Made by a program: the position numbers and the translations under genes. A stretch of DNA of 64,000 nucleotides from a virus: the IMG/VR virus record IMGVR_UViG_3300027754_003462; one strand, 5' to 3'. The notes below the pieces were generated by a model that saw only the letters and a program-made list of their open reading frames with translations, was not told the origin of the DNA and did not search any database. Within the stretch, counting starts at the first letter, position 1, and each line of letters begins with the position of its first letter. This document shows positions 40,094 to 62,656 of this stretch, piece by piece.

Positions 40094-40315
40094 TTAATCG
40101 TTCCAATGTCTCAATACACCTGCTATAATAAACAGATTGGTTAGTATATAGCACAACACAATTGCTGTGCGTATATAAGCAATAAGATCTGACTCAGAGT
40201 TTGTATCGCCTGCTTTGTTACCTAATGCTTTTGCCCAGAGCCGCCATATTTTATTTTTTGGTAAAAACATAAATACCTTCCCATTTTTCTCTACCTTGTT
40301 TTTTATTGTTACCAA
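40094..40315 (-). CDS. small membrane hypothetical protein
   Basis: WRLWAKALG.KA..; TN.FI.AGV.RHW; true start uncertain. Confidence 0.7.
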   Translation of the reverse strand: MVTIKNKVEKNGKVFMFLPKNKIWRLWAKALGNKAGDTNSESDLIAYIRTAIVLCYILTNLFIIAGVLRHWND

Positions 40316-41375
40316 CGCCAGGTCTGGTGTTCAACATCATTTTTATGATGCCTTGATGTTGGAACCCCATCTGCTCCGCAGTATCAATCCATCTATCAAC
40401 TACAAAATATTCTTTGTTGCCATAACTTTTGTAGTCGGCAATGTTGGTGGCAAACACACCATCTGAATTTAATCCTTTGTGTATATTTCTCATGGTAGGT
40501 ACTGCATACAATTCAAACCAATCATCCAACGTGGTACACCTTACCATGCATTGTGTAGGCTCATCACAATACTTTTCCAAATTAAAATACGGAGGACTTG
40601 AAAATGCAAGGTCAACATCTATGGGTTCAAAATTTTCACTTGTGTCACAGTTCAATGTTGCTTTACGACCGTATGCTTCAGTGATCAGACTAGCAAGGTA
40701 TTGCAAGTTAGCGAATGTTTCTGTGTTGGGATCTATGCCTGTGTAACAGTAACCCATTTTGCTACTGGTAATACCTAGCATGCGACCACCATAGCCTGCA
40801 GAATAATCATACACATTACCCCACATCACTGGACACAGATGTTCCACAATAGATCTGGCGTTTTGTGATTTGAAGTTTTGTACATTTTCACCAGTGACCA
40901 ATTCAAGCGCCCGGCGCATGGCTGTGGGGTAAACTAACTTGTCACCTTCTCTAAATTCAAAACAAATACGTATGGCTCTTTTTAATTTGGCATCATCTAA
41001 AAATCTATCTCTTAAACTATTACTGCCTCGACCCTTGGGTTCTGCAGTCATCATGTTTGGAAACAAAAATCTATTAATGGTTTGTCCTTGATTATTACCT
41101 AGCCCCAACGTACTATTGTCTACTGAATTAACTTTTTTATCTCGAAAAAGTCTTAATTCTTTTATTAAGCCCGGTTCTGTAAAGTAATCTATGGGCACAA
41201 GATTTACAGACCTATATAGATCTTTAATTTTTTCAATTGTGCCTGCAGGATCTTTTTGATAAACATCTTTAGTGTATAAATCAAATTGATCATACAGATG
41301 TTCATACCCTGTGAAACGATCGCCGCGAATATTAGCAGGCTGGATGTTCCACTGTTGATATAAACGATCTATCAT
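40251..41375 (-). CDS. amino (N4-C/N6-A) DNA methyltransferase-like protein
   Basis: DYSAGYGGR (motif I), GIDPN, FSSPPYF (motif IV). Confidence 0.8.
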   Translation of the reverse strand: MIDRLYQQWNIQPANIRGDRFTGYEHLYDQFDLYTKDVYQKDPAGTIEKIKDLYRSVNLVPIDYFTEPGLIKELRLFRDKKVNSVDNSTLGLGNNQGQTINRFLFPNMMTAEPKGRGSNSLRDRFLDDAKLKRAIRICFEFREGDKLVYPTAMRRALELVTGENVQNFKSQNARSIVEHLCPVMWGNVYDYSAGYGGRMLGITSSKMGYCYTGIDPNTETFANLQYLASLITEAYGRKATLNCDTSENFEPIDVDLAFSSPPYFNLEKYCDEPTQCMVRCTTLDDWFELYAVPTMRNIHKGLNSDGVFATNIADYKSYGNKEYFVVDRWIDTAEQMGFQHQGIIKMMLNTRPGVGNNKKQGREKWEGIYVFTKK

Positions 41376-41398
41376 GTTTTTGTAAGCGGGCGTTCACG

Positions 41399-53142: not shown

Positions 53143-54068
53143 TACCATGGGATTCCATTTTCGTCGGCGGCTTGTTTGTGAGTTGGATTGTTTGCATCAT
53201 ATTGCATGTAACCTTGCCCAAAATTAATTTCTTTACCTCGAGTGCGAGGATTTATTTGGAACTGTACTGCACCAACACCGCCACTGCCAGCCGCGCTGCC
53301 ACGTTTGATGTCGTATGCTATGATGTTTTGTGCTGGTAGTATTCCGTCGCCCACTAGTTTGATCCAATCCAGGCCCATGTTTTTGGGGTCGCCACCTTGT
53401 ATTTCGGCTTGGTAGATAGCGTCTATCATTTGTGTGATATCTGCAACCACATCTTGTATGCCTTGTTTGGCCACTGGATCTTTGATACTGCTGGCCAACT
53501 GTGTGTATTCTCTACCCAGCATTTGATTGACCAGCATGTGTAACTCTTGTTTCAATGCAGCCACACTAGGTTGAGAAACTGTTTTGAGACTGTTAGCAGG
53601 ATTACCATTGGCGTCTTTGCTGTTGGCCAAAAAATTCTGTACTGTTTGTGCCCAAGAAGCCTGCATTGTTGTGGCCAGTTGTTTGGCCATAGGGCTGTTG
53701 ACCATGCTCTTGAACATGTCATCACGACTCATTGATGTGCCACCTTTGCCCAGGACATCTACCCCACCAAAGGCCTTGCTCATTAGGCTTTTGCCCAATG
53801 CCCCTAGTGTTCCGCCGGCCAAGGCCGCGGCGCCACCTACAATTTTTCCCGGAACGCTGTTGGCAATAGCACTGCCCACAGATCCACTGGTCTTGGCTGC
53901 GGCAGAGGGAGTTGCAGTAGCAGTAGTTCCAGCAGTGGCTGAACCACTAGTGGCAACAGGTTTGGCAAATCCTGTGCCGTAAGTTACCTTGGGTTGAACA
54001 CCACCGGTTCCTGTCACTGTTGGCACAAGTTCGGTTAGGGGTCTACGTGTTATTTCATGAATCTGCAT
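53142..54068 (-). CDS. probable virion internal protein
   Basis: MQIHEI leader after AGGAG; Gly/Ala/Thr-rich. Confidence 0.7.
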   Translation of the reverse strand: MQIHEITRRPLTELVPTVTGTGGVQPKVTYGTGFAKPVATSGSATAGTTATATPSAAAKTSGSVGSAIANSVPGKIVGGAAALAGGTLGALGKSLMSKAFGGVDVLGKGGTSMSRDDMFKSMVNSPMAKQLATTMQASWAQTVQNFLANSKDANGNPANSLKTVSQPSVAALKQELHMLVNQMLGREYTQLASSIKDPVAKQGIQDVVADITQMIDAIYQAEIQGGDPKNMGLDWIKLVGDGILPAQNIIAYDIKRGSAAGSGGVGAVQFQINPRTRGKEINFGQGYMQYDANNPTHKQAADENGIPW

Positions 54069-54303
54069 TGGTTCTCCTAACAGATCGCGAAAACTTGCCA
54101 GCATCTTTGGTGCGTATGGCATTCAGCAGTTTTCTGGTGAGGTTGTCTGCTTGCTCTGCACCAAACTCTGATTCTATTTGTTCAATCAAGCGTATGGCGC
54201 TGGCAATCACACTGTCAGCCCTAGTTTCAATGATCAGGCGGCGATCCTGCTTCACATACATTGAATCTAGTTCTTCTAGCAAACTTCGGGTCTTTTTCTG
54301 CAT
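54055..54303 (-). CDS. conserved hypothetical late protein (82 aa)
   Basis: TRSLLEEL..; TAAATA upstream. Confidence 0.8.
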   Translation of the reverse strand: MQKKTRSLLEELDSMYVKQDRRLIIETRADSVIASAIRLIEQIESEFGAEQADNLTRKLLNAIRTKDAGKFSRSVRRTNADS

Positions 54304-54372: not shown

Positions 54373-55296
54373 ATGACAAGTCAAATCAACCCCAACAACA
54401 TCGACGGCCAATACCCCGTTGCGGGCCAGCCCAACAACACACAGGGCTTTAGAGATAATTTTACCAACATCAAAACCAATTTCCAAACAGCCGCCACAGA
54501 GATCACTGACTTGGAAAACAAAGGCGTATTCAAAGCCGCACTAACAGGCACCACACTTGACAACAACATGGCAGACAACTTAATATACGCCGTTAAATTA
54601 CAAGATGTCAGTTACACGTATGTGCAACAAACTGCTACCGCAGGTGCTATCCCTATTGATTACGCAGCTGGGCAATATCAACTGGTTGCGCCCACTGCCA
54701 ACGTTAGTTTGAGTTTTTCTAACTGGCCTGCCGCAGGATCTGAGGGCGAAGTGTACGTTGACGTTGTTGTGACCAATACTGCTTACACAGTCACCCTGCC
54801 TGCCGCAGTCAGTGTAGGCACAACAGGCATTCAAGGGTATGCAGCCAACGTTATCACCTTTGGTGCTGCCGGTACATATAGATTTGGGTTTAGTACTGCG
54901 GACGCAGGTACTACAATTGCCATCTATGATTTGAATCGTGCTCTCACTGCTTACACCAATTCATTTGGATATGTTGCCGGGGGTGGCGGCACTGTGACTC
55001 AGGCCACCAACAAGGCCACCGGTGTTACACTAAACAAACCCAGTGGTCAAATTACTATGAGCAATGCGGCCCTGGCTGCCGCTACTATTGTGAGTTTTAC
55101 TTTTACAAACAGCACAATTTCATCTACTGACTTGTTGGTAATCAATCATGTGAGTGGCGGTACTGTGGGGTCTTACACATTCACTGCCGCTTGTGGCTCG
55201 GGCTCGGCCACTGTGTATGTTCGTAATGCAACCTCAGGCTCACTCGGCGAAGCCATTGTGTTGCGTTATGCTGTGATTAAGGGCGCCATAAGTTAA
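54373..55296 (+). CDS. tail fibre/structural protein (307 aa)
   Basis: YPVAGQ.N.TQGFRDNF N-terminus; TVTQAT.K.TGVTLN..SG.IT beta-rich C-terminus. Confidence 0.75.
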   Translation: MTSQINPNNIDGQYPVAGQPNNTQGFRDNFTNIKTNFQTAATEITDLENKGVFKAALTGTTLDNNMADNLIYAVKLQDVSYTYVQQTATAGAIPIDYAAGQYQLVAPTANVSLSFSNWPAAGSEGEVYVDVVVTNTAYTVTLPAAVSVGTTGIQGYAANVITFGAAGTYRFGFSTADAGTTIAIYDLNRALTAYTNSFGYVAGGGGTVTQATNKATGVTLNKPSGQITMSNAALAAATIVSFTFTNSTISSTDLLVINHVSGGTVGSYTFTAACGSGSATVYVRNATSGSLGEAIVLRYAVIKGAIS

Positions 55297-56405
55297 AGAT
55301 ACCTAGCATAAAATTCAGCCACTTCTGGAAATGTTTTTTGAAATGACTGATTTCTAAAGTTATCAAATTTTACAATTTCTTTTATCATACTTTCAATACC
55401 TATGGGATTTTCTTCCCAGTTCTTAGATATTAAATTCTTATAGTTGCTTGTTTGCATAGCATCAACATATTCTTGTGTGCAGTTATCTAGACTAAATTTT
55501 CCAAGTGCTAGATGATTTCCTTGACTAGTAGGGTCACCTTCACGGTTACTTGAAAAATTATCATCAGCCCAGATCTTTGATTGTTCTAGATAAAAGAGAT
55601 TAAAGATACTCACAGTTTCTTCAATGTGAAACATTACATTACTAGGAGCAGTGTGACGAATTTGCATCATGTTATCAACCACCTGATGCCAGGATGCTGG
55701 CCAACGAAGATATTCAAATCTTTCGCCAATGCCATCTAGACTTACGTTTAGTTTGACCAGATGAAATCTATCAATTATTTCATGATTTCTGACATGTATG
55801 GGTTGAGTACCATTTGTCTGAAAACACAAAGTCAATTGTTGTTTGACATTGGGCACATTGTTAGATAACCATTCGGCAATTTTCCAATATGCTTGCCCCA
55901 ACATGGTTTCGCCTCCAGCAAATACTAACATTTGCAAATTAGAAAGATCTAGTTGTTCCAGTGCTAAAATCACATTGTGATGTTGTTGTAGAGAACTTAT
56001 CGGTTGATTCCAACTGCCGTGCTCATTGAGATGCTTTTGCCAAAACGTACTTGATTGCGGCCCGCAAGATCTACATGCAAGATTACAACTTAGATCAAAT
56101 TTAAGATCTATTCTTGTTGGCCCCGACAGGTTGGTCTTTATGTCTTTTAATCCGGCATTCATTCCAGTACGAAAACTTTGTCCACCAACTGTCTCTATAG
56201 ATTTACAACTTTCGCATTCTGGTGCCCAAACATTTTGATTATTAAGTTGCCGGAGGGGTATAAATCCTGGATCGTTCCAAAAATTTGTTGTTATGTCAAT
56301 TGGAAATCTTGAATTGTGCAAACAACAATGCTGGGCAGTTGCGTATTTTTCTTTAAGATTTAATTCAAGACCGCCGTGTATCATTGAGCAGTAAGAGTCG
56401 GTCAT
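55293..56405 (-). CDS. radical SAM protein
   Basis: CNLACRSC, AGGET, QTNG, SLDG; N-terminal YC..HCC..CESC. Confidence 0.9.
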   Translation of the reverse strand: MTDSYCSMIHGGLELNLKEKYATAQHCCLHNSRFPIDITTNFWNDPGFIPLRQLNNQNVWAPECESCKSIETVGGQSFRTGMNAGLKDIKTNLSGPTRIDLKFDLSCNLACRSCGPQSSTFWQKHLNEHGSWNQPISSLQQHHNVILALEQLDLSNLQMLVFAGGETMLGQAYWKIAEWLSNNVPNVKQQLTLCFQTNGTQPIHVRNHEIIDRFHLVKLNVSLDGIGERFEYLRWPASWHQVVDNMMQIRHTAPSNVMFHIEETVSIFNLFYLEQSKIWADDNFSSNREGDPTSQGNHLALGKFSLDNCTQEYVDAMQTSNYKNLISKNWEENPIGIESMIKEIVKFDNFRNQSFQKTFPEVAEFYARYL

Positions 56406-57859
56406 GATTGTTTAATCTTTCCCAGCAGTTGTTTTAGTTTTGCGCTTTGCACATCTGCTGAAACTTTGCCTGTTTCCTGTGGGCCTTTTTCCCAAGCAGG
56501 AGTTCCTGTGGCTCGCTCCCATGGTGGGGATGATTCACTTGACTCTACAGTGTCGGCTGGCTTAACTTGACTGCGAGCCTTGATTGAGTCCATGATACTG
56601 CTTTGGGGTTTGTTGTAACCAGTTCCTTCGTCCCCACCTTCATCAGTAATGCGCATGGTTTCAATGTTGTATTCAAGGTCAATCTTTTGTCCCACACCTG
56701 TTGAACTACGACTCTTCATACATTGTATTTGATACTTGCCACGCTCTTTCATGGCACGACTTGTAAAGATACCAAACACATTGTCTGCTGTGTTGATCTT
56801 GGAAATACCGCCTGATATGTGCGAGTGATCAAATTCAATCTCTTCCACAGCACTACGATTCAACTGCGATGCTGTTACCATTAGCACTGCCAACTCTTTG
56901 GCCAAGTTACGCAGTTCTTCACTCACATACTTGTCTTTAACAAACAAGTCGTTGGGTGAGACTTTGGCACTCACAGGCATCAACAAATCCAAATAGTCAA
57001 TCATCACAAAGTCTACCTTCTTGCCTGTTTGAATTTGATACTCTTTCAAATAAGCACGAATGTCATTGATGTTGCTCTGGGCTGGCAATCCTTTCACTTG
57101 ATAGTTGCCTGACTTCTTGGCCACAAGTTTTACCTTGAGTTCAGTTGTATCAATATCTTTGCGAATGTCCTTGGTGCTCATGTTTGTTAACATAGCATCT
57201 GTTCGCAAACTTGTGAGTTCTTCTGATAGTTCAAGTGTGATATACACCCCACTCAGGCCTTGTTGTAACCAGTTGAGTGCAATGTTCATCATCACAAGAC
57301 TCTTACCCGAACCCGATCCTCCGGCAAAGATGTTGAGTTCACCACGACTGAATCCGCCATACAACAATCTATCCAGTTGTGGCCATCCTGTGCTTACTTG
57401 CCCGCCCGAGTTAAAGTATTTCTCAATGCGAGCCTTAGGATCAGCAAAGTAATCCGTGCCCATGTCTTTAGTAAGTGATATCTGTACTGCATCTTTGATA
57501 AGTTTCTCAACGGGTTCAAACTCGCCTTTCTCCAACAGGTCTGCTGATTTTAAAATTGCACGTTCAAGTTCTTGGCGCCGGGTAAATGCTTCAAACTCGC
57601 CCATGAACCAGTCAAAGTGGCCTTCGTTCAAGTCCGGCACTGGCGCAAGTTTAATGCCTGTAGTCGCAGAGATCTGTGACCTGTCGGGCATGGTCTTGTG
57701 TTTGTCAGTGTGTTCTTTAATGAACTCAGCCGCTGGTCTTAGACTTCGGTCAAAGTTCTGCGGATTGTAGATGTTTTGAACACGCACATAACTTGTGGCG
57801 TCTTCCAGCATCATTTCTAGAAATAGTCTTTGGACGTCAAGTCCGTATTCTTTTAACAT
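56402..57859 (-). CDS. replicative DNA helicase (T4 gp41/DnaB-like)
   Basis: GGSGSGKS, TLEL, IDYLDL, TASQLNR, KSR. Confidence 0.93.
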   Translation of the reverse strand: MLKEYGLDVQRLFLEMMLEDATSYVRVQNIYNPQNFDRSLRPAAEFIKEHTDKHKTMPDRSQISATTGIKLAPVPDLNEGHFDWFMGEFEAFTRRQELERAILKSADLLEKGEFEPVEKLIKDAVQISLTKDMGTDYFADPKARIEKYFNSGGQVSTGWPQLDRLLYGGFSRGELNIFAGGSGSGKSLVMMNIALNWLQQGLSGVYITLELSEELTSLRTDAMLTNMSTKDIRKDIDTTELKVKLVAKKSGNYQVKGLPAQSNINDIRAYLKEYQIQTGKKVDFVMIDYLDLLMPVSAKVSPNDLFVKDKYVSEELRNLAKELAVLMVTASQLNRSAVEEIEFDHSHISGGISKINTADNVFGIFTSRAMKERGKYQIQCMKSRSSTGVGQKIDLEYNIETMRITDEGGDEGTGYNKPQSSIMDSIKARSQVKPADTVESSESSPPWERATGTPAWEKGPQETGKVSADVQSAKLKQLLGKIKQS

Positions 57860-58971
57860 TGTATAATTGGTCCCTGGAGACTAAGTCTCCAATTTGTGTT
57901 TCTTATTTTATCTAGTTTTTCAAAATAATCAATCCATTCAGTGGATTGCGACGATCCTAGTTGTGATAACAGGCCGCTGGCACCTGGCAACTCTATAATA
58001 GATTGTAACACATCTTCAGCAGAATTATGTAACATACTGGGAAAATTTTTTAGTGATAAAACCTTTCCACCATACGATGATGGCTCAATTGCACGTACAA
58101 ATATTTGACTAGAATCTCCTTGATTTCCATTTTGGCAGTGATTTTTCCACCATTCAAAAAACTCAGGCATATTAAAAATATTATGTATTCCTACTATAGC
58201 ATTAACTTCAATTAAAATACAAGGACCGTCCAAATTTCTAAACCATTGAATATTTTTTTGTGTCTGGTCCCAGTTGGCCGGAAATCTAGTGTATTCAAAT
58301 GTTGTACCTATACCGTCAAGACTAAAAAATAACCGAATCCATTTTGCCTGGCACCATAGATCTATCAGTTCCTGATCGGGCAAAATAGTTCCGTTTGTAT
58401 TGTACGTCAATGAGACTTCGGGAAGGCGTCCAATGTTTTTGAGATGCATTAATATTTTTTTATTGTCAGGGTTTAAGAGTGGTTCCCCTCCAGTAAAATG
58501 CAACTGGCTTACTTCGCTTAGGTCTAAATCTTGCCAAACGGATTCAGGATTCTTTTTCAAACGGATTAGGGGAATTGTGTTATCAAACAAGTGATAGTGT
58601 GAATTCCAAGAACTACTATATCGAGAACTGCAAGATATACATGTGAGATTGCAAATTAAACTTTGTTCAAGATGTAATTTTTTAATTTTTGTTCCGGAGT
58701 CGTCCCAAATTGTTTCGTTTTGTGTGCGTTCTCTTTCGTTGGCAATGTGTCCTGACATTTTACAATATGATGAGCATTTGTCAGGCACACGGTCCTGGGA
58801 TTGGCGCCTAATAGATTGCAGATAGTCATGATCAAACATTACTTTTTCAACAGATTTTTTATTCTGCCAACAACACATAGAAATTTGAGTGCTACCTTGA
58901 GGAGTACTACCAATGAATAGTCCTTGATCATAGTATGGACAAAAACAATCACTGGCGTAGTCTTTTAACAA
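57853..58971 (-). CDS. radical SAM protein
   Basis: CNLTCISC, FTGGEPL, NTNG, SLDG; TTG start. Confidence 0.88.
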   Translation of the reverse strand: MLKDYASDCFCPYYDQGLFIGSTPQGSTQISMCCWQNKKSVEKVMFDHDYLQSIRRQSQDRVPDKCSSYCKMSGHIANERERTQNETIWDDSGTKIKKLHLEQSLICNLTCISCSSRYSSSWNSHYHLFDNTIPLIRLKKNPESVWQDLDLSEVSQLHFTGGEPLLNPDNKKILMHLKNIGRLPEVSLTYNTNGTILPDQELIDLWCQAKWIRLFFSLDGIGTTFEYTRFPANWDQTQKNIQWFRNLDGPCILIEVNAIVGIHNIFNMPEFFEWWKNHCQNGNQGDSSQIFVRAIEPSSYGGKVLSLKNFPSMLHNSAEDVLQSIIELPGASGLLSQLGSSQSTEWIDYFEKLDKIRNTNWRLSLQGPIIQC

Positions 58972-59938
58972 GTTGTTTCTTCCTTATTTCTATTTTGATT
59001 CGGCTGGTTTCTCTCGAGGCCATAATAGTTAGCAAAGCCCCCAGGCGGCCTAGTTTTATCACAGCGTCATTGACATCTTTGCAACCCGCTGGCCACTCGG
59101 GTATGCTCACTGCCCAGCCCAGTTCCACAGCACGGTCGATCAGTTCTACGCCGGCTGTGTCTTGATCTGGCACCACAGTGACTTCACGACCAAGACTGCG
59201 AATTAATCTTGCTTGGCCATCGCTGATGGTATTGTGCATCACAGCAAGTCCACCGATTGAGAGTGCATCAAAGATACCCTCAGTAACAATCACATGTTGC
59301 CAGTCTGCATGTTGTAAATCTGTACCAAACACATAGCCCGGTTGTGAGTGATTGATGTACCGGGGCTGTTTGTCATCTAAGAATCTAGCAGTCCAGCCTA
59401 TCACTCGGTTGTCATATGTAAACGGTACCAACACAAATGGCCTTGTCCAATGAACCCCATCAGTTTTGATCGATGTCATTATGGGAAAGTCTTCAGGCAC
59501 GCCACGCCGGCGTATGTAATCCCAGTACAGCGGATGTTCAGGTGTGACCACTTCTGAGAACGGGGGGAAGTCGTCTGCTTCTTCAAACTCAATGGCACTG
59601 AGTGCATTGAATACTCGTTGTCGATCTTCCAAGATGCCGTGTATGCTACGATGACGCAGACTTTCAAGATTGAGCATTTCAATCTCGTTATCCGGCACAC
59701 CCATCCATCCTAACAATCTCTTGGCTTTGAAACTGACAGTACGGCCTAGAATGAAACTGGCTGTGTATGAGCAATTGAAGCAATGATAACTCCAGCCCGA
59801 TTCAGTTGCTTTGATACCACCACGTCCACGCCGGTCTTGGCTGTTGCCATTATGAGTGCAACATACCGCATTGAAACTCAGCCAGCCTTGTGGACTGGGT
59901 TTTCTTTTTGCAGGTAGGTAAGCAAGGATGTCTAGCAT
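58949..59938 (-). CDS. DNA primase (gp61-like)
   Basis: Zn finger (CC.H...HCFNC); TOPRIM TEGIFDAL, PDQD, KDVND. Confidence 0.9.
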   Translation of the reverse strand: MLDILAYLPAKRKPSPQGWLSFNAVCCTHNGNSQDRRGRGGIKATESGWSYHCFNCSYTASFILGRTVSFKAKRLLGWMGVPDNEIEMLNLESLRHRSIHGILEDRQRVFNALSAIEFEEADDFPPFSEVVTPEHPLYWDYIRRRGVPEDFPIMTSIKTDGVHWTRPFVLVPFTYDNRVIGWTARFLDDKQPRYINHSQPGYVFGTDLQHADWQHVIVTEGIFDALSIGGLAVMHNTISDGQARLIRSLGREVTVVPDQDTAGVELIDRAVELGWAVSIPEWPAGCKDVNDAVIKLGRLGALLTIMASRETSRIKIEIRKKQLVKRLRQ

Positions 59939-59969: not shown

Positions 59970-61040
59970 TCAACGATATTGAACGTTTTGTACTCGTCCG
60001 TTTGTAAATAGTGCAGTGGCACTTACATTGCTTTGGAATTGAACTGGCAAGTAGCCCGATCCGCCATTGGTAACAGTTACCCCGGCAACACCACCGTTGG
60101 GATCAATTGTACAGGTAGCAGTTGCACCCGAACCATCACCTAGGATTTCAACCAAGGGCGGTGCCACATAGTACACGCCGGCATTGGTTATACTGACCGA
60201 AGTTACCACATTATTTGTGACTTGTACTGTGCCCGCGGCACCATAACCAATTGAGTTGTTGAATGCCAGGCGCAACAATGGATGGAAGCCAACCACGTTG
60301 AAATAATCACTTATGGTTTCGCCAAGATATTGTCTTGACTCTGTCACATTGTACCAGACTGATTCATAGTTCTGGGCGGCTTGTATTTTGACTGTGCCTG
60401 TGTAGCCCACCAAGTCATACTTGACTGTGGTCAGGCTTGCGCCGTTTGTGGGCATGAAACTACTGTAGAATTCCGTTGCTTGAATAGCATTGATCGGTTG
60501 TGGTGTCAGTGCCCAGTCTGGCCATTGTGTTGGACCCACGCCAAAGTAGTTGTTCTTGCCGTACATGTCAGGCACAGTGCATTCTGCGGCTGGTATGTGT
60601 TGCGGCAGCACAGAGTCCACAATGTTGCAGTCTGCTCTGGCTTGTGAGTTAGCATCTGTATACGCGGCCTGCACATAGTTGCCGGCTGTGCGTTGTATGC
60701 TGTAACTGGCAGGCTGTGCTTGAATGTTGATTGTGTCAGTGTTATCAAGCACAACTTTGACTCTGCCCAGTGCGGAACTTAGGATTTCCATGGGCTTGGT
60801 AACCAGGAGTTCATCTCCTGTTTGATTTACCACACGGAAAACAAAACTAGAGCCTGCAATATTCACAGGTTTCTGGTCTTGATTTATAAATTCAAAGAGT
60901 AGAACATTGTCCACTCCCTTGTTGATTGTTAGTTGTTTTGCGTACACTGGGTCGTACCTCTTTGTAAAATATCCGCCACTGGTGTCTATCAAAAGTACCC
61001 GGACGAGTTGTTGGTATAAGTAAACGGTGGTTGAATACAT
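59970..61040 (-). CDS. probable virion structural protein
   Basis: KGVDN..F.F.NQDQKPV; C-terminal V..V.ITN.G..Y...P repeats. Confidence 0.7.
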   Translation of the reverse strand: MYSTTVYLYQQLVRVLLIDTSGGYFTKRYDPVYAKQLTINKGVDNVLLFEFINQDQKPVNIAGSSFVFRVVNQTGDELLVTKPMEILSSALGRVKVVLDNTDTINIQAQPASYSIQRTAGNYVQAAYTDANSQARADCNIVDSVLPQHIPAAECTVPDMYGKNNYFGVGPTQWPDWALTPQPINAIQATEFYSSFMPTNGASLTTVKYDLVGYTGTVKIQAAQNYESVWYNVTESRQYLGETISDYFNVVGFHPLLRLAFNNSIGYGAAGTVQVTNNVVTSVSITNAGVYYVAPPLVEILGDGSGATATCTIDPNGGVAGVTVTNGGSGYLPVQFQSNVSATALFTNGRVQNVQYR

Positions 61041-61060: not shown

Positions 61061-61438
61061 ATGGGTAACAATATCTTTGAAAAATTGACAGAAAAATATC
61101 CCTTCATAACATTGTGCATTTATGCCAATGCAGAATATGTGGGTGTGGTACAAAACAGGGACGATATTGTTACAACTATCTACGACTTTGGCAGTATCTT
61201 GGACCAAGAATCCAAGATACTGTTCCTGGAATTGGCCAGCACTTGGTGGTGGGAAAGCAATCGATCAATCCCCATAAACATATTCCTGCGCCGAGACTGG
61301 GAACAGTTCCGCTATACCCTGCGCACTTTTGTCAACAAAGATCTAGAGATCTTGCACGGTCCTGCTTGCAGTTTGCTGGACATAGTGCGCAAGAAAAGCA
61401 AACGCAAATCAATTACTCTTGTGCGACGGATGGACTAG
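61061..61438 (+). CDS. conserved hypothetical protein (125 aa)
   Basis: YPF..EYVG..YD..WWWESNRSIPINIFL. Confidence 0.8.
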   Translation: MGNNIFEKLTEKYPFITLCIYANAEYVGVVQNRDDIVTTIYDFGSILDQESKILFLELASTWWWESNRSIPINIFLRRDWEQFRYTLRTFVNKDLEILHGPACSLLDIVRKKSKRKSITLVRRMD

Positions 61439-61982
61439 TAAGATTCATGTGTAATGCTACCAGGGCCGCGTAGGAAACTGCGTGGCTTTTTTTGAATGTG
61501 TAGCCTCGAGATTCGTCACCATCCCACACACTCTCAAATACTTCTGCCCAAGGGCGTGTTTGTAAGTGTGCTTTGCCCGGGCGAATAACGGATATAAAAG
61601 CCGCCATCCTGGGTATTGAATCTGGTTTCATCACACGTAGCAAATCTGTATAATTGCCCACGTGTACTAACTGACTGGCCCAGGCATGATCTGTCCACAG
61701 TCTTTCCCAAGGTGGGGTGGTTGTGAGCATGGCTTCATAGTGTGCAGGATCCTGGACCAACTGATACACACTCATGTTTAGGAAGTCCAGTTTAAAATAT
61801 CCACGCTGTTCTGCTTCTTCGTAATCTATTGCGGCGCACTGATTCACAGGATCCCAGGGAATGTCTGATACATATATACCTGAGTTGTGTTTACGTCCAT
61901 TGCTTTGTCGTGCAGGCACATGCTGAATCAATTTCAGTACGTCCTCGCGATTCGCAAAATCTAAATCTATATCTGCGCTCAT
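61413..61982 (-). CDS. miniature DNA polymerase III alpha (DnaE)-like palm protein
   Basis: DIDLDF, HNSGIYV, FKLDFL, IRPG, GYTFKKSHAVSYA in DnaE order. Confidence 0.8.
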   Translation of the reverse strand: MSADIDLDFANREDVLKLIQHVPARQSNGRKHNSGIYVSDIPWDPVNQCAAIDYEEAEQRGYFKLDFLNMSVYQLVQDPAHYEAMLTTTPPWERLWTDHAWASQLVHVGNYTDLLRVMKPDSIPRMAAFISVIRPGKAHLQTRPWAEVFESVWDGDESRGYTFKKSHAVSYAALVALHMNLTSPSVAQE

Positions 61983-62656
61983 TACCAGCCTGCCTTGTTC
62001 AATATATCTTTCACATACTCTTGATCTGCTGGGTAGTTGGTAAACTTCTTTTGCCAGGCGTCCGAATCAATGTAGGGCCAGACCATGGCCACTTGTTCTG
62101 TGCTCAATTCGCTGAGAAACTTTTGTCCTGATTCACTATTATAAATTATCCAAGGTGATATACGTCCGGCCGTGACAGCATAACATAGACTATTGGTGTT
62201 GCCATAACGCATCCAGTCATGTGCAGGATTACCTGTTTCTTCTGCCCAACGTATGCTGTGTTCTATTGCTCGAGCCAGGGCATCGTCCACTGCTTCCACA
62301 CGCAGGTATTCTATTAAGTACTCTGTGTAGATTTTGTCACTGCACCAATGATCAATTTTCTTTTGTGCCTTCAGCAACCAGGTCATGAAACGTGCGGGCG
62401 CAACCACATGTGTGTTTACACAATAGTTTCCAAACTTGACAAATGCTCGGTAGTAAGGGCTGTCACAAAAGTCATCGTGTGTTTTGTTTCGGGCCGATCC
62501 TTGCATGGTTTCATAGAACTTGATATAGGCTTGAAATCCCATGCGTACACCTGCTTCGTCTCGAGCAAGTCTTCTGCGCTTGGGCTCACACGAATGCACC
62601 AACAGTGAAGTTTCTTTCATGAATGTTTTCTTGCAATACTCACACGTGAATGTCAT
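61982..62656 (-). CDS. hypothetical protein with N-terminal C2HC-type zinc finger
   Basis: CEYC..F..E..L..H.C. Confidence 0.75.
   Translation of the reverse strand: MTFTCEYCKKTFMKETSLLVHSCEPKRRRLARDEAGVRMGFQAYIKFYETMQGSARNKTHDDFCDSPYYRAFVKFGNYCVNTHVVAPARFMTWLLKAQKKIDHWCSDKIYTEYLIEYLRVEAVDDALARAIEHSIRWAEETGNPAHDWMRYGNTNSLCYAVTAGRISPWIIYNSESGQKFLSELSTEQVAMVWPYIDSDAWQKKFTNYPADQEYVKDILNKAGW

Follow-up and report, generated by a model that had tools for sequence, protein, structure and literature searches.

The replicative DNA polymerases of bacteria belong to family C, whereas those of archaea, eukaryotes, and phage T4 belong to family B, and the two families are unrelated. The viral DNA analyzed here, a 64,000-nucleotide stretch recorded in IMG/VR as IMGVR_UViG_3300027754_003462 (the window), contains a 189-codon open reading frame (ORF) that resembles DnaE, the C-family α subunit of DNA polymerase III (Pol III), and this raises the question of what so short a DnaE-like protein does in the virus. 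An original prediction, made from the sequence alone, described the product as a minimal polymerase core with all three catalytic Asp residues, selected as a stand-alone mini nucleotidyltransferase, and named one part of a split polymerase as another option. The gene is the C-terminal unit (C-unit) of a split Pol III α system of a kind already known since Iyer et al. 2021 (Iyer, Anantharaman, Krishnan, Burroughs, and Aravind; Viruses 13:63; PMC7824862), and its product is probably one subunit of a two-subunit minimal polymerase, as argued below.

The ORF is intact in the window, and its ATG shares one base with the TAA stop codon of the 224-aa gene upstream (TGG TAA/ATG). The same TAA/ATG junction recurs in a relative (L079), and the TAATG overlap is present in G001, a 345-kb, 99%-complete IMG/VR contig. 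The intact, TAATG-coupled ORF described in the original prediction was thus found as stated, and the five DnaE motifs were present in the DnaE order at residues 4–8, 32–35, 64–66, 134–136, and 161–167 (Table 1). The single C-unit sequence matched phrog_11778, annotated "DNA polymerase", from end to end in PHROGs (E 2.6e-49) and, weakly, phrog_405, a 1190-position DnaE-type family. Pfam and NCBIfam yielded nothing significant with the single sequence, only sub-threshold matches that were colinear with Pol III α. The phmmer search of the single sequence against PDB returned only collagen adhesin matches, which were attributed to chance, and a profile was required. The profile built from 76 diverse homologues with 28–64% identity to the query (alignment A1) matched only Pol III α chains in PDB, from E. 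coli, Thermus, and M. tuberculosis (E 6e-6 to 1e-4). It was colinear with E. coli Pol III α, residues 4–21, 55–140, and 151–180 corresponding to residues 399–418, 539–641, and 739–769, respectively.

The predicted structure was consistent with this assignment. The AlphaFold2 model of the C-unit based on A1 had a mean predicted local distance difference test score (pLDDT) of 95.8 and a predicted template modeling score (pTM) of 0.89, and the top 15 Foldseek matches to it were all Pol III α or PolC. VIA-align superposed 186 of the 189 residues on Taq Pol III α (3e0d_A, residues 460–841) with a Z score of 9.7 and a root-mean-square deviation of 4.0. The Z scores for M. tuberculosis DnaE1 (5lew, residues 418–808) and E. 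coli Pol III α (residues 399–784) were 9.6 and 8.3, respectively, and the best unrelated fold reached just 3.6. Structure prediction and superposition on the Pol III α palm, which had been suggested as a check, therefore revealed a palm and fingers fold that can be superposed on solved Pol III α. The C-unit shares with bacterial DnaE1, DnaE3, and PolC (PDB 2hnh, 2hpi/3e0d, and 5lew) the Pol-β-like palm, the equivalents of D401, D403, D555, and K553, and the RPG and Y.FNKSH motifs, and the structural alignment with these enzymes spans the whole 189-residue chain (Z 8.3–9.7). The profile matches, the model fold, and the structural alignment together indicate that the likeness to DnaE reflects homology and not chance.

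The residues expected to be essential for catalysis were strongly conserved. D4, D6, K64, D66, and P135 were invariant in the 76 homologues, and D8, H32, G35, R134, K164, and H167 were conserved in at least 90% of them. The three catalytic carboxylates of the C family (E. coli D401, D403, and D555) are represented by D4, D6, and D66, and the fingers motifs RPG and Y.FNKSH by R134, P135, K164, and H167. The ratio of nonsynonymous to synonymous substitution rates (dN/dS; Nei–Gojobori) against the window gene, another check proposed with the original prediction, ranged from 0.05 to 0.13, with a median of 0.08. Intact ORFs of 183–198 aa were found at 77 of the 80 best related loci, and the other three were cut by contig ends. 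The C-unit gene is under strong purifying selection; the variable or frameshifted homologues that would have marked a decaying gene were not seen, and the earlier view of a selected gene agreed with the constant length, the invariant catalytic residues, and the low dN/dS. The family comprised 5847 clusters at 90% identity in the near-length range of about 185–200 aa (E ≤1e-3). There were 355 representatives at 50% identity, and about 600 C-unit loci were present in IMG/VR.

In a 2026 preprint on an E. coli ternary complex, the GS motif (R362-G363-S364) on the first palm strand holds the phosphates of the incoming deoxynucleoside triphosphate (dNTP), R639, P640, and G641 contact the templating nucleotide, and Y754, F756, N757, and H760 form the dNTP pocket. 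The K553A substitution abolishes Pol III activity, and R709, K714, and K715 of the index finger, within residues 642–738, close on the dNTP. The C-unit keeps equivalents of both metal-binding Asp residues, the third Asp, K553, RPG, and the pocket residues of the Y754/F756/N757/H760 type; that is, it holds the counterparts of the E. coli residues for binding both metal ions, the end of the primer, the templating nucleotide, and the base and sugar side of the incoming dNTP. The GS-motif strand is absent from the C-unit because the chain begins exactly at the DxD strand. The description as a minimal polymerase core thus held for the three catalytic Asp residues, and the part of the core that is present begins at the DxD strand. 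The C-unit is equivalent to E. coli residues 399–784 with deletions and lacks the PHP, thumb, β-binding, HhH, and OB domains. The loss of the PHP, HhH, and OB domains and of the intervening thumb and finger stretches had been predicted correctly; the thumb (E. coli residues 419–538) has shrunk to 33 residues, and residues 642–738 have collapsed to approximately 10 residues in the profile alignment. No match to PHP (PF02811) was found anywhere in G001, Pseudomonas phage Paride, or Sinorhizobium phage Phosso.

The missing palm strand was traced through a natural fusion. P0181, a 375-aa protein among the C-unit representatives, contains ..GVGRGSSSAS.. in its first half, followed by DFDID, and its second half aligns to the C-unit. 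The Pfam family PF07733 spans the junction between the two halves. This unsplit form may be ancestral or re-fused, or may be an assembly artifact, as it was seen on one contig; it was the sole example observed, and a word-based search for longer forms, which provides weak evidence, revealed no further fused relatives. The first 190 residues of P0181, used as a probe, identified one separate ORF of about 170–180 aa per genome in five related genomes, namely Paride, Phosso, and three IMG/VR contigs, of which G001 is one. In all five, this N-terminal unit (N-unit) ends with ..GVGRGSSVASY..D.D..EFL(K/R/N)-stop, and R143-G144-S145, the R-G-S that the C-unit lacks, is invariant. The N-unit (about 174 aa) scored above the PF07733 cut-off and aligned to E. 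coli DnaE residues 318–392. PF07733 matched once per genome in G001, Paride, and Phosso, and the Pfam finger model touched the C-unit alone, weakly. Since the N-unit ends at E. coli residue 392 and the C-unit starts at the DxD strand, the break falls within the six residues 393–398, inside the Pol-β-like fold.

The two genes occur together at distant sites. The N-unit and C-unit genes are located at 29 and 125 kb in G001, 59 and 15 kb in Paride, and 97 and 321 kb in Phosso, respectively, and are 40–220 kb apart in the relatives. Among GenBank phages, 100 records contain the N-unit and 96 contain the C-unit, and the hosts are distributed in the same way; the tblastn matches of the C-unit in these 96 records were full-length (E 1e-27 to 3e-44). 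At least 7995 near-length relatives of the N-unit were found, many of which are called "DNA polymerase III alpha subunit" by the Joint Genome Institute. In Paride (L094), 121Q (L095), and G001 (L096, 20000–36000), two small ORFs and then a gp44-like clamp loader gene come after the N-unit gene.

Prediction of the complex of the G001 N-unit and C-unit, each supplied as an alignment, gave ipSAE values of 0.90, 0.90, and 0.91 in three runs, whereas the best of three controls scored 0.00. When the method was calibrated, 58 of 80 solved complexes reached the mark, as did 2 of 110 mismatched pairs. The runs agreed in at least 97% of the contacts, with a partner pLDDT of at least 89. The predicted interface is formed by C-unit residues 2–10 and N-unit residues 135–148, and the tightest predicted contacts, between residues 7–9 of the DxD strand and residues 138–140 of the strand leading into GRGSS, correspond to the strand pairing of an intact palm. 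The same contacts occur within one chain in solved DnaE structures, and this result may reflect likeness to them; it supports binding of the two units and is no proof of it. The natural fusion P0181 supports the pairing independently of the complex model. Together with the distant N-unit gene, these results single out one part of a split polymerase as the right option among those first proposed.

Intein-mediated joining of the halves was considered and rejected, as both units abut polymerase sequence directly (EFLR-stop in the N-unit and M-S-A-DIDLDF in the C-unit). There is no room for intein halves in either unit, and assembly would therefore be non-covalent. In cyanobacteria, DnaE is split by an intein, and the products of dnaE-n and dnaE-c are joined by protein trans-splicing. 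The phage form resembles the cyanobacterial one in that a C-family polymerase is derived from two distant genes, and differs from it in that intein halves are absent and the break lies inside the palm instead of the fingers. It also differs from bacterial DnaE, a single chain of about 1160 aa, in being composed of two chains of about 174 and 189 aa without the PHP domain, thumb, index-finger tip (residues 642–738), and β-binding, HhH, OB, and τ-binding domains.

These observations are best explained if the C-unit is the C-terminal subunit of a two-subunit minimal C-family polymerase whose heterodimer carries out templated synthesis beside a family B replicase, a reading that we regard as probable. 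The N-unit and C-unit would associate non-covalently, and the GS strand of the former would pair with the DxD strand of the latter to rebuild the Pol-β-like palm. The heterodimer would then make DNA on a template as an accessory enzyme beside the family B replicase of the phage. Judging from the conserved residues, it would be catalytically competent; lacking a PHP or exonuclease domain, a thumb, and an index-finger tip, it would be a short-patch, distributive polymerase of low processivity that does not proofread. Primer extension and gap filling at the fork are its likely roles.

Several points weigh against this assignment. The collapsed finger stretch contained R709, K714, and K715, so that the index-finger tip is missing, and the absence of the thumb leaves the grip on primer–template DNA without explanation. 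No clamp-binding motif was identified, and the N-unit has an invariant Glu at the position of E. coli R390. The N-unit of the window's own phage was not found in the 64-kb window by motif regular expression, phmmer with the N-terminal part of P0181, a hidden Markov model (HMM) of the five N-units, or tblastn. In addition, no biochemical or genetic study of any family member was found in the literature. GRGS-like strings in two window ORFs (53145–54122 and 40254–41393) were chance matches without HMM support, and the homologue of the Paride clamp loader was not present in the window.

The alternative that survives best is that the heterodimer is an active nucleotidyltransferase of the Pol-β fold and not a templated polymerase, acting in template-independent 3′ tailing, in nucleotidylation of proteins or DNA ends, or in the formation of a nucleotide signal. 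The Pol-β nucleotidyltransferase superfamily has many members that are not polymerases, and the index-finger tip, the thumb, proofreading, and the clamp- and DNA-binding domains have all gone from the phage form. The conserved residues nevertheless include the R-P-G that contacts the templating nucleotide, K64 at the terminal phosphate of the primer, and the Y.F.KSH pocket, which would be pointless without a primer–template. The conserved template and primer contacts favor templated synthesis over other nucleotidyl transfer. Both genes also sit in replication modules, as the C-unit gene belongs to a primase–helicase module and the N-unit gene lies beside the clamp loader gene. A non-templated activity is therefore unlikely.

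The original prediction had also named the adjacent Zn-finger protein as a possible partner of the polymerase. This 224-aa protein, in which C5, C8, H21, and C23 are invariant, has an all-helical body (AlphaFold2 pLDDT 83), and its gene is conserved upstream of the C-unit gene as far as PA5oct-like phages and Phosso. The TAATG overlap in the window and in G001 and the conserved gene order would be compatible with a missing polymerase piece or an obligate subunit. However, no Pol III-like sequence (Pfam and NCBIfam) or fold was detected in the protein, which gave no Foldseek match at E ≤0.001 and a best Z of 4.2 by VIA-align across 48,161 chains. Moreover, 0.3–2.7 kb of extra DNA lies between the two genes in many relatives, and the GS strand missing from the C-unit is already supplied by the N-unit. 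We consider it very unlikely that the Zn-knuckle protein completes the polymerase, and it may have an accessory role instead.

Whether the 189-aa protein could work alone, as first proposed, was judged from its fold and its partner. Its three catalytic Asp residues are on one chain, and the monomer was modeled at high confidence. Nevertheless, it has no GS-motif strand, which binds the dNTP phosphates in every Pol-β-like nucleotidyltransferase, and for this reason the protein does not qualify as a stand-alone enzyme of this type. The same phage records also contain a dedicated N-unit, which is fused to it in P0181, and in the complex model the DxD strand is buried against the N-unit; independent function is accordingly extremely improbable. 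Finally, the notion that the C-unit gene is the remnant of a captured dnaE that is decaying or catalytically dead has in its favor that more than 80% of DnaE is gone, and is scarcely credible for a gene of constant length and invariant catalytic residues with a dN/dS of about 0.08 and thousands of intact homologues across phages at 30–95% identity.

The preferred reading, a two-subunit minimal Pol III α, agrees with what has been described for jumbo phages. Iyer et al. 2021 (PMC7824862) identified by computation a split minimal Pol III α in group 2.2 jumbo phages, where it occurs beside a family B polymerase; they suggested a role in the synthesis of one strand or in repair and proposed a relation to a minimal Pol III that preceded the last universal common ancestor (LUCA). 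By tblastn, the C-unit showed 35–41% identity over its full length to genes of PA5oct-like and Rak2/121Q-like phages, CBB, Atu_ph07, and Phosso, indicating that it is homologous to the C-terminal unit of Rak2/PA5oct/Atu_ph07-type phages. These group 2.2 jumbo T4-like phages are the typical carriers of the two-subunit minimal Pol III α. The family is the same, and in the relatives so is the architecture, with a C-terminal unit that binds Mg2+ and the template, a distant N-terminal unit that binds nucleoside triphosphates, and a family B polymerase alongside. No essential difference was found; the phage lineage to which the window copy belongs is uncultivated and abundant in metagenomes. In several GenBank records, one or both genes are already annotated as "DNA polymerase (III alpha)". 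The mini-DnaE idea, which the original prediction presented as its own inference, is therefore not new: the striking "mini-DnaE" is real but is half an enzyme, already published as a computational prediction (PMC7824862).

The expectation that T4-like phages replicate with a family B polymerase was borne out in the relative G001, which encodes an 886-aa family B polymerase. No such gene was seen in the scan of the window, which covered large ORFs and few others. What is added here to the known system is the exact split point (E. coli residues 393–398), the strong purifying selection, the number of family members in metagenomes, the fused form, the conserved linkage between the N-unit and clamp loader genes, the loss of the index-finger tip, and a residue-level account of the features kept and lost.

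Group 2.2 jumbo phages carry polymerases of both families, with the C-family enzyme cut to a bare two-piece catalytic core. This split enzyme family, which forms thousands of protein clusters, is very frequent in environmental phage DNA. If active, the pair would show the minimum that C-family catalysis requires and provide a tractable model of how Pol III originated, and a division of labor at the phage replication fork might emerge. A more specific proposal, which we put forward as speculative and on balance unlikely, is that the N-unit/C-unit heterodimer of about 360 residues is the smallest active C-family polymerase and serves as a primer-extension enzyme, extending the RNA primer from the neighboring primase–helicase into short DNA that is handed to the clamp-bound family B replicase. 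Such a role would parallel that of B. subtilis DnaE or eukaryotic Pol α, and to our knowledge no role of this type has been described for T4-like phages. If this proposal were true, the pair would be a living model for the pre-LUCA minimal Pol III that Iyer et al. proposed (PMC7824862).

The features of the locus are listed in Table 1. The conserved gene order is g166, g148, g224 (Zn knuckle), C-unit, convergent g125, a structural gene, primase, and DnaB-like helicase, and it holds from the close relatives of the window out to PA5oct-like phages and Phosso.

Table 1. Positions of the C-unit gene, its motifs, and neighboring genes in the window, and of the fused form on another contig
Feature	Position	Strand	Remarks
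C-unit gene (189 aa) of the split minimal Pol III α	61413..61982	-	Palm from DxD strand on and reduced fingers core
DIDLD codons (D4-I-D6-L-D8)	61959..61973	-	Metal-binding DxD strand; E. coli D401/D403; aligned to E. coli 399–405
H32-N-S-G35 codons	61878..61889	-	Equivalent of E. coli 511-HAGG, after collapsed thumb, by motif order and structural alignment range, not residue-level superposition
K64-L-D66 codons	61785..61793	-	Primer-phosphate Lys and third catalytic Asp; E. coli K553/D555; aligned to VKFDFLG
R134-P135-G136 codons	61575..61583	-	E. coli R639/P640/G641; contacts to templating nucleotide
Y161-T-F-K-K-S-H167 codons	61482..61502	-	dNTP-pocket helix-loop-helix; E. coli Y754/F756/N757/H760; aligned to GYGFNKSHS
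224-aa helical protein with CCHC zinc knuckle	61982..62656	-	phrog_11058; TAATG overlap with C-unit gene
Convergent 125-aa gene	61061..61438	+	phrog_11637, E 5e-29; overlaps 3′ end of C-unit gene by 26 nt
356-aa protein between C-unit gene and primase	59970-61040	-	C-terminal approximately 80 residues match PHROGs, E 1e-7 to 1e-10
Toprim DNA primase	58949..59938	-	Pfam Toprim_2; phrog_47, E 9.6e-32; synteny
DnaB-like replicative helicase	56402..57859	-	phrog_19, E 6.9e-70; synteny
Two radical-SAM genes flanking the DnaB-like helicase	57853-58971 and 55293-56405	-	
Fused 375-aa mini Pol III α, P0181	L097 1066-2193		Single 2.4-kb metagenomic contig; short linker joins N- and C-units

The N-unit, the two small ORFs, and the clamp loader form a second conserved module that is kept in three distant lineages, and one of the small ORFs is annotated as "chaperonin" in 121Q.

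For the Zn-knuckle protein, an Atlas search returned only viral clusters annotated as "hypothetical" or "C2H2-type domain-containing". The C-terminal domain of the T4 helicase loader gp59 aligned to it over 97 residues with a Z of 3.9, tied with unrelated helical proteins, and Pfam gp59_C had no match in three related genomes. This protein could be the helicase loader of the module, which we note as a lead only. The DNA inserted at the junction between the Zn-knuckle and C-unit genes (L009 2262–3797, L044 1649–3836, L045 7813–10000, and L062 928–3683), which in one case contains a radical-SAM-like ORF, looks like mobile or cargo insertion.

In each of the 30-odd relatives examined, Paride and Phosso among them, the convergent 125-aa gene was found at the corresponding position. 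Its tail-to-tail overlap with the C-unit gene is kept in most of them and is also present beside the fused form on L097. In most relatives, the primase gene directly abuts the helicase gene, and a radical-SAM-like gene is found only past the helicase gene; the radical-SAM copy between primase and helicase in the window (57853–58971) therefore looks like an insertion. The 356-aa protein is variable among the relatives (39–97% identity), and its C-terminus resembles domains of baseplate-wedge, head-closure, and large virion structural proteins, placing a structural-type gene inside the replication module.

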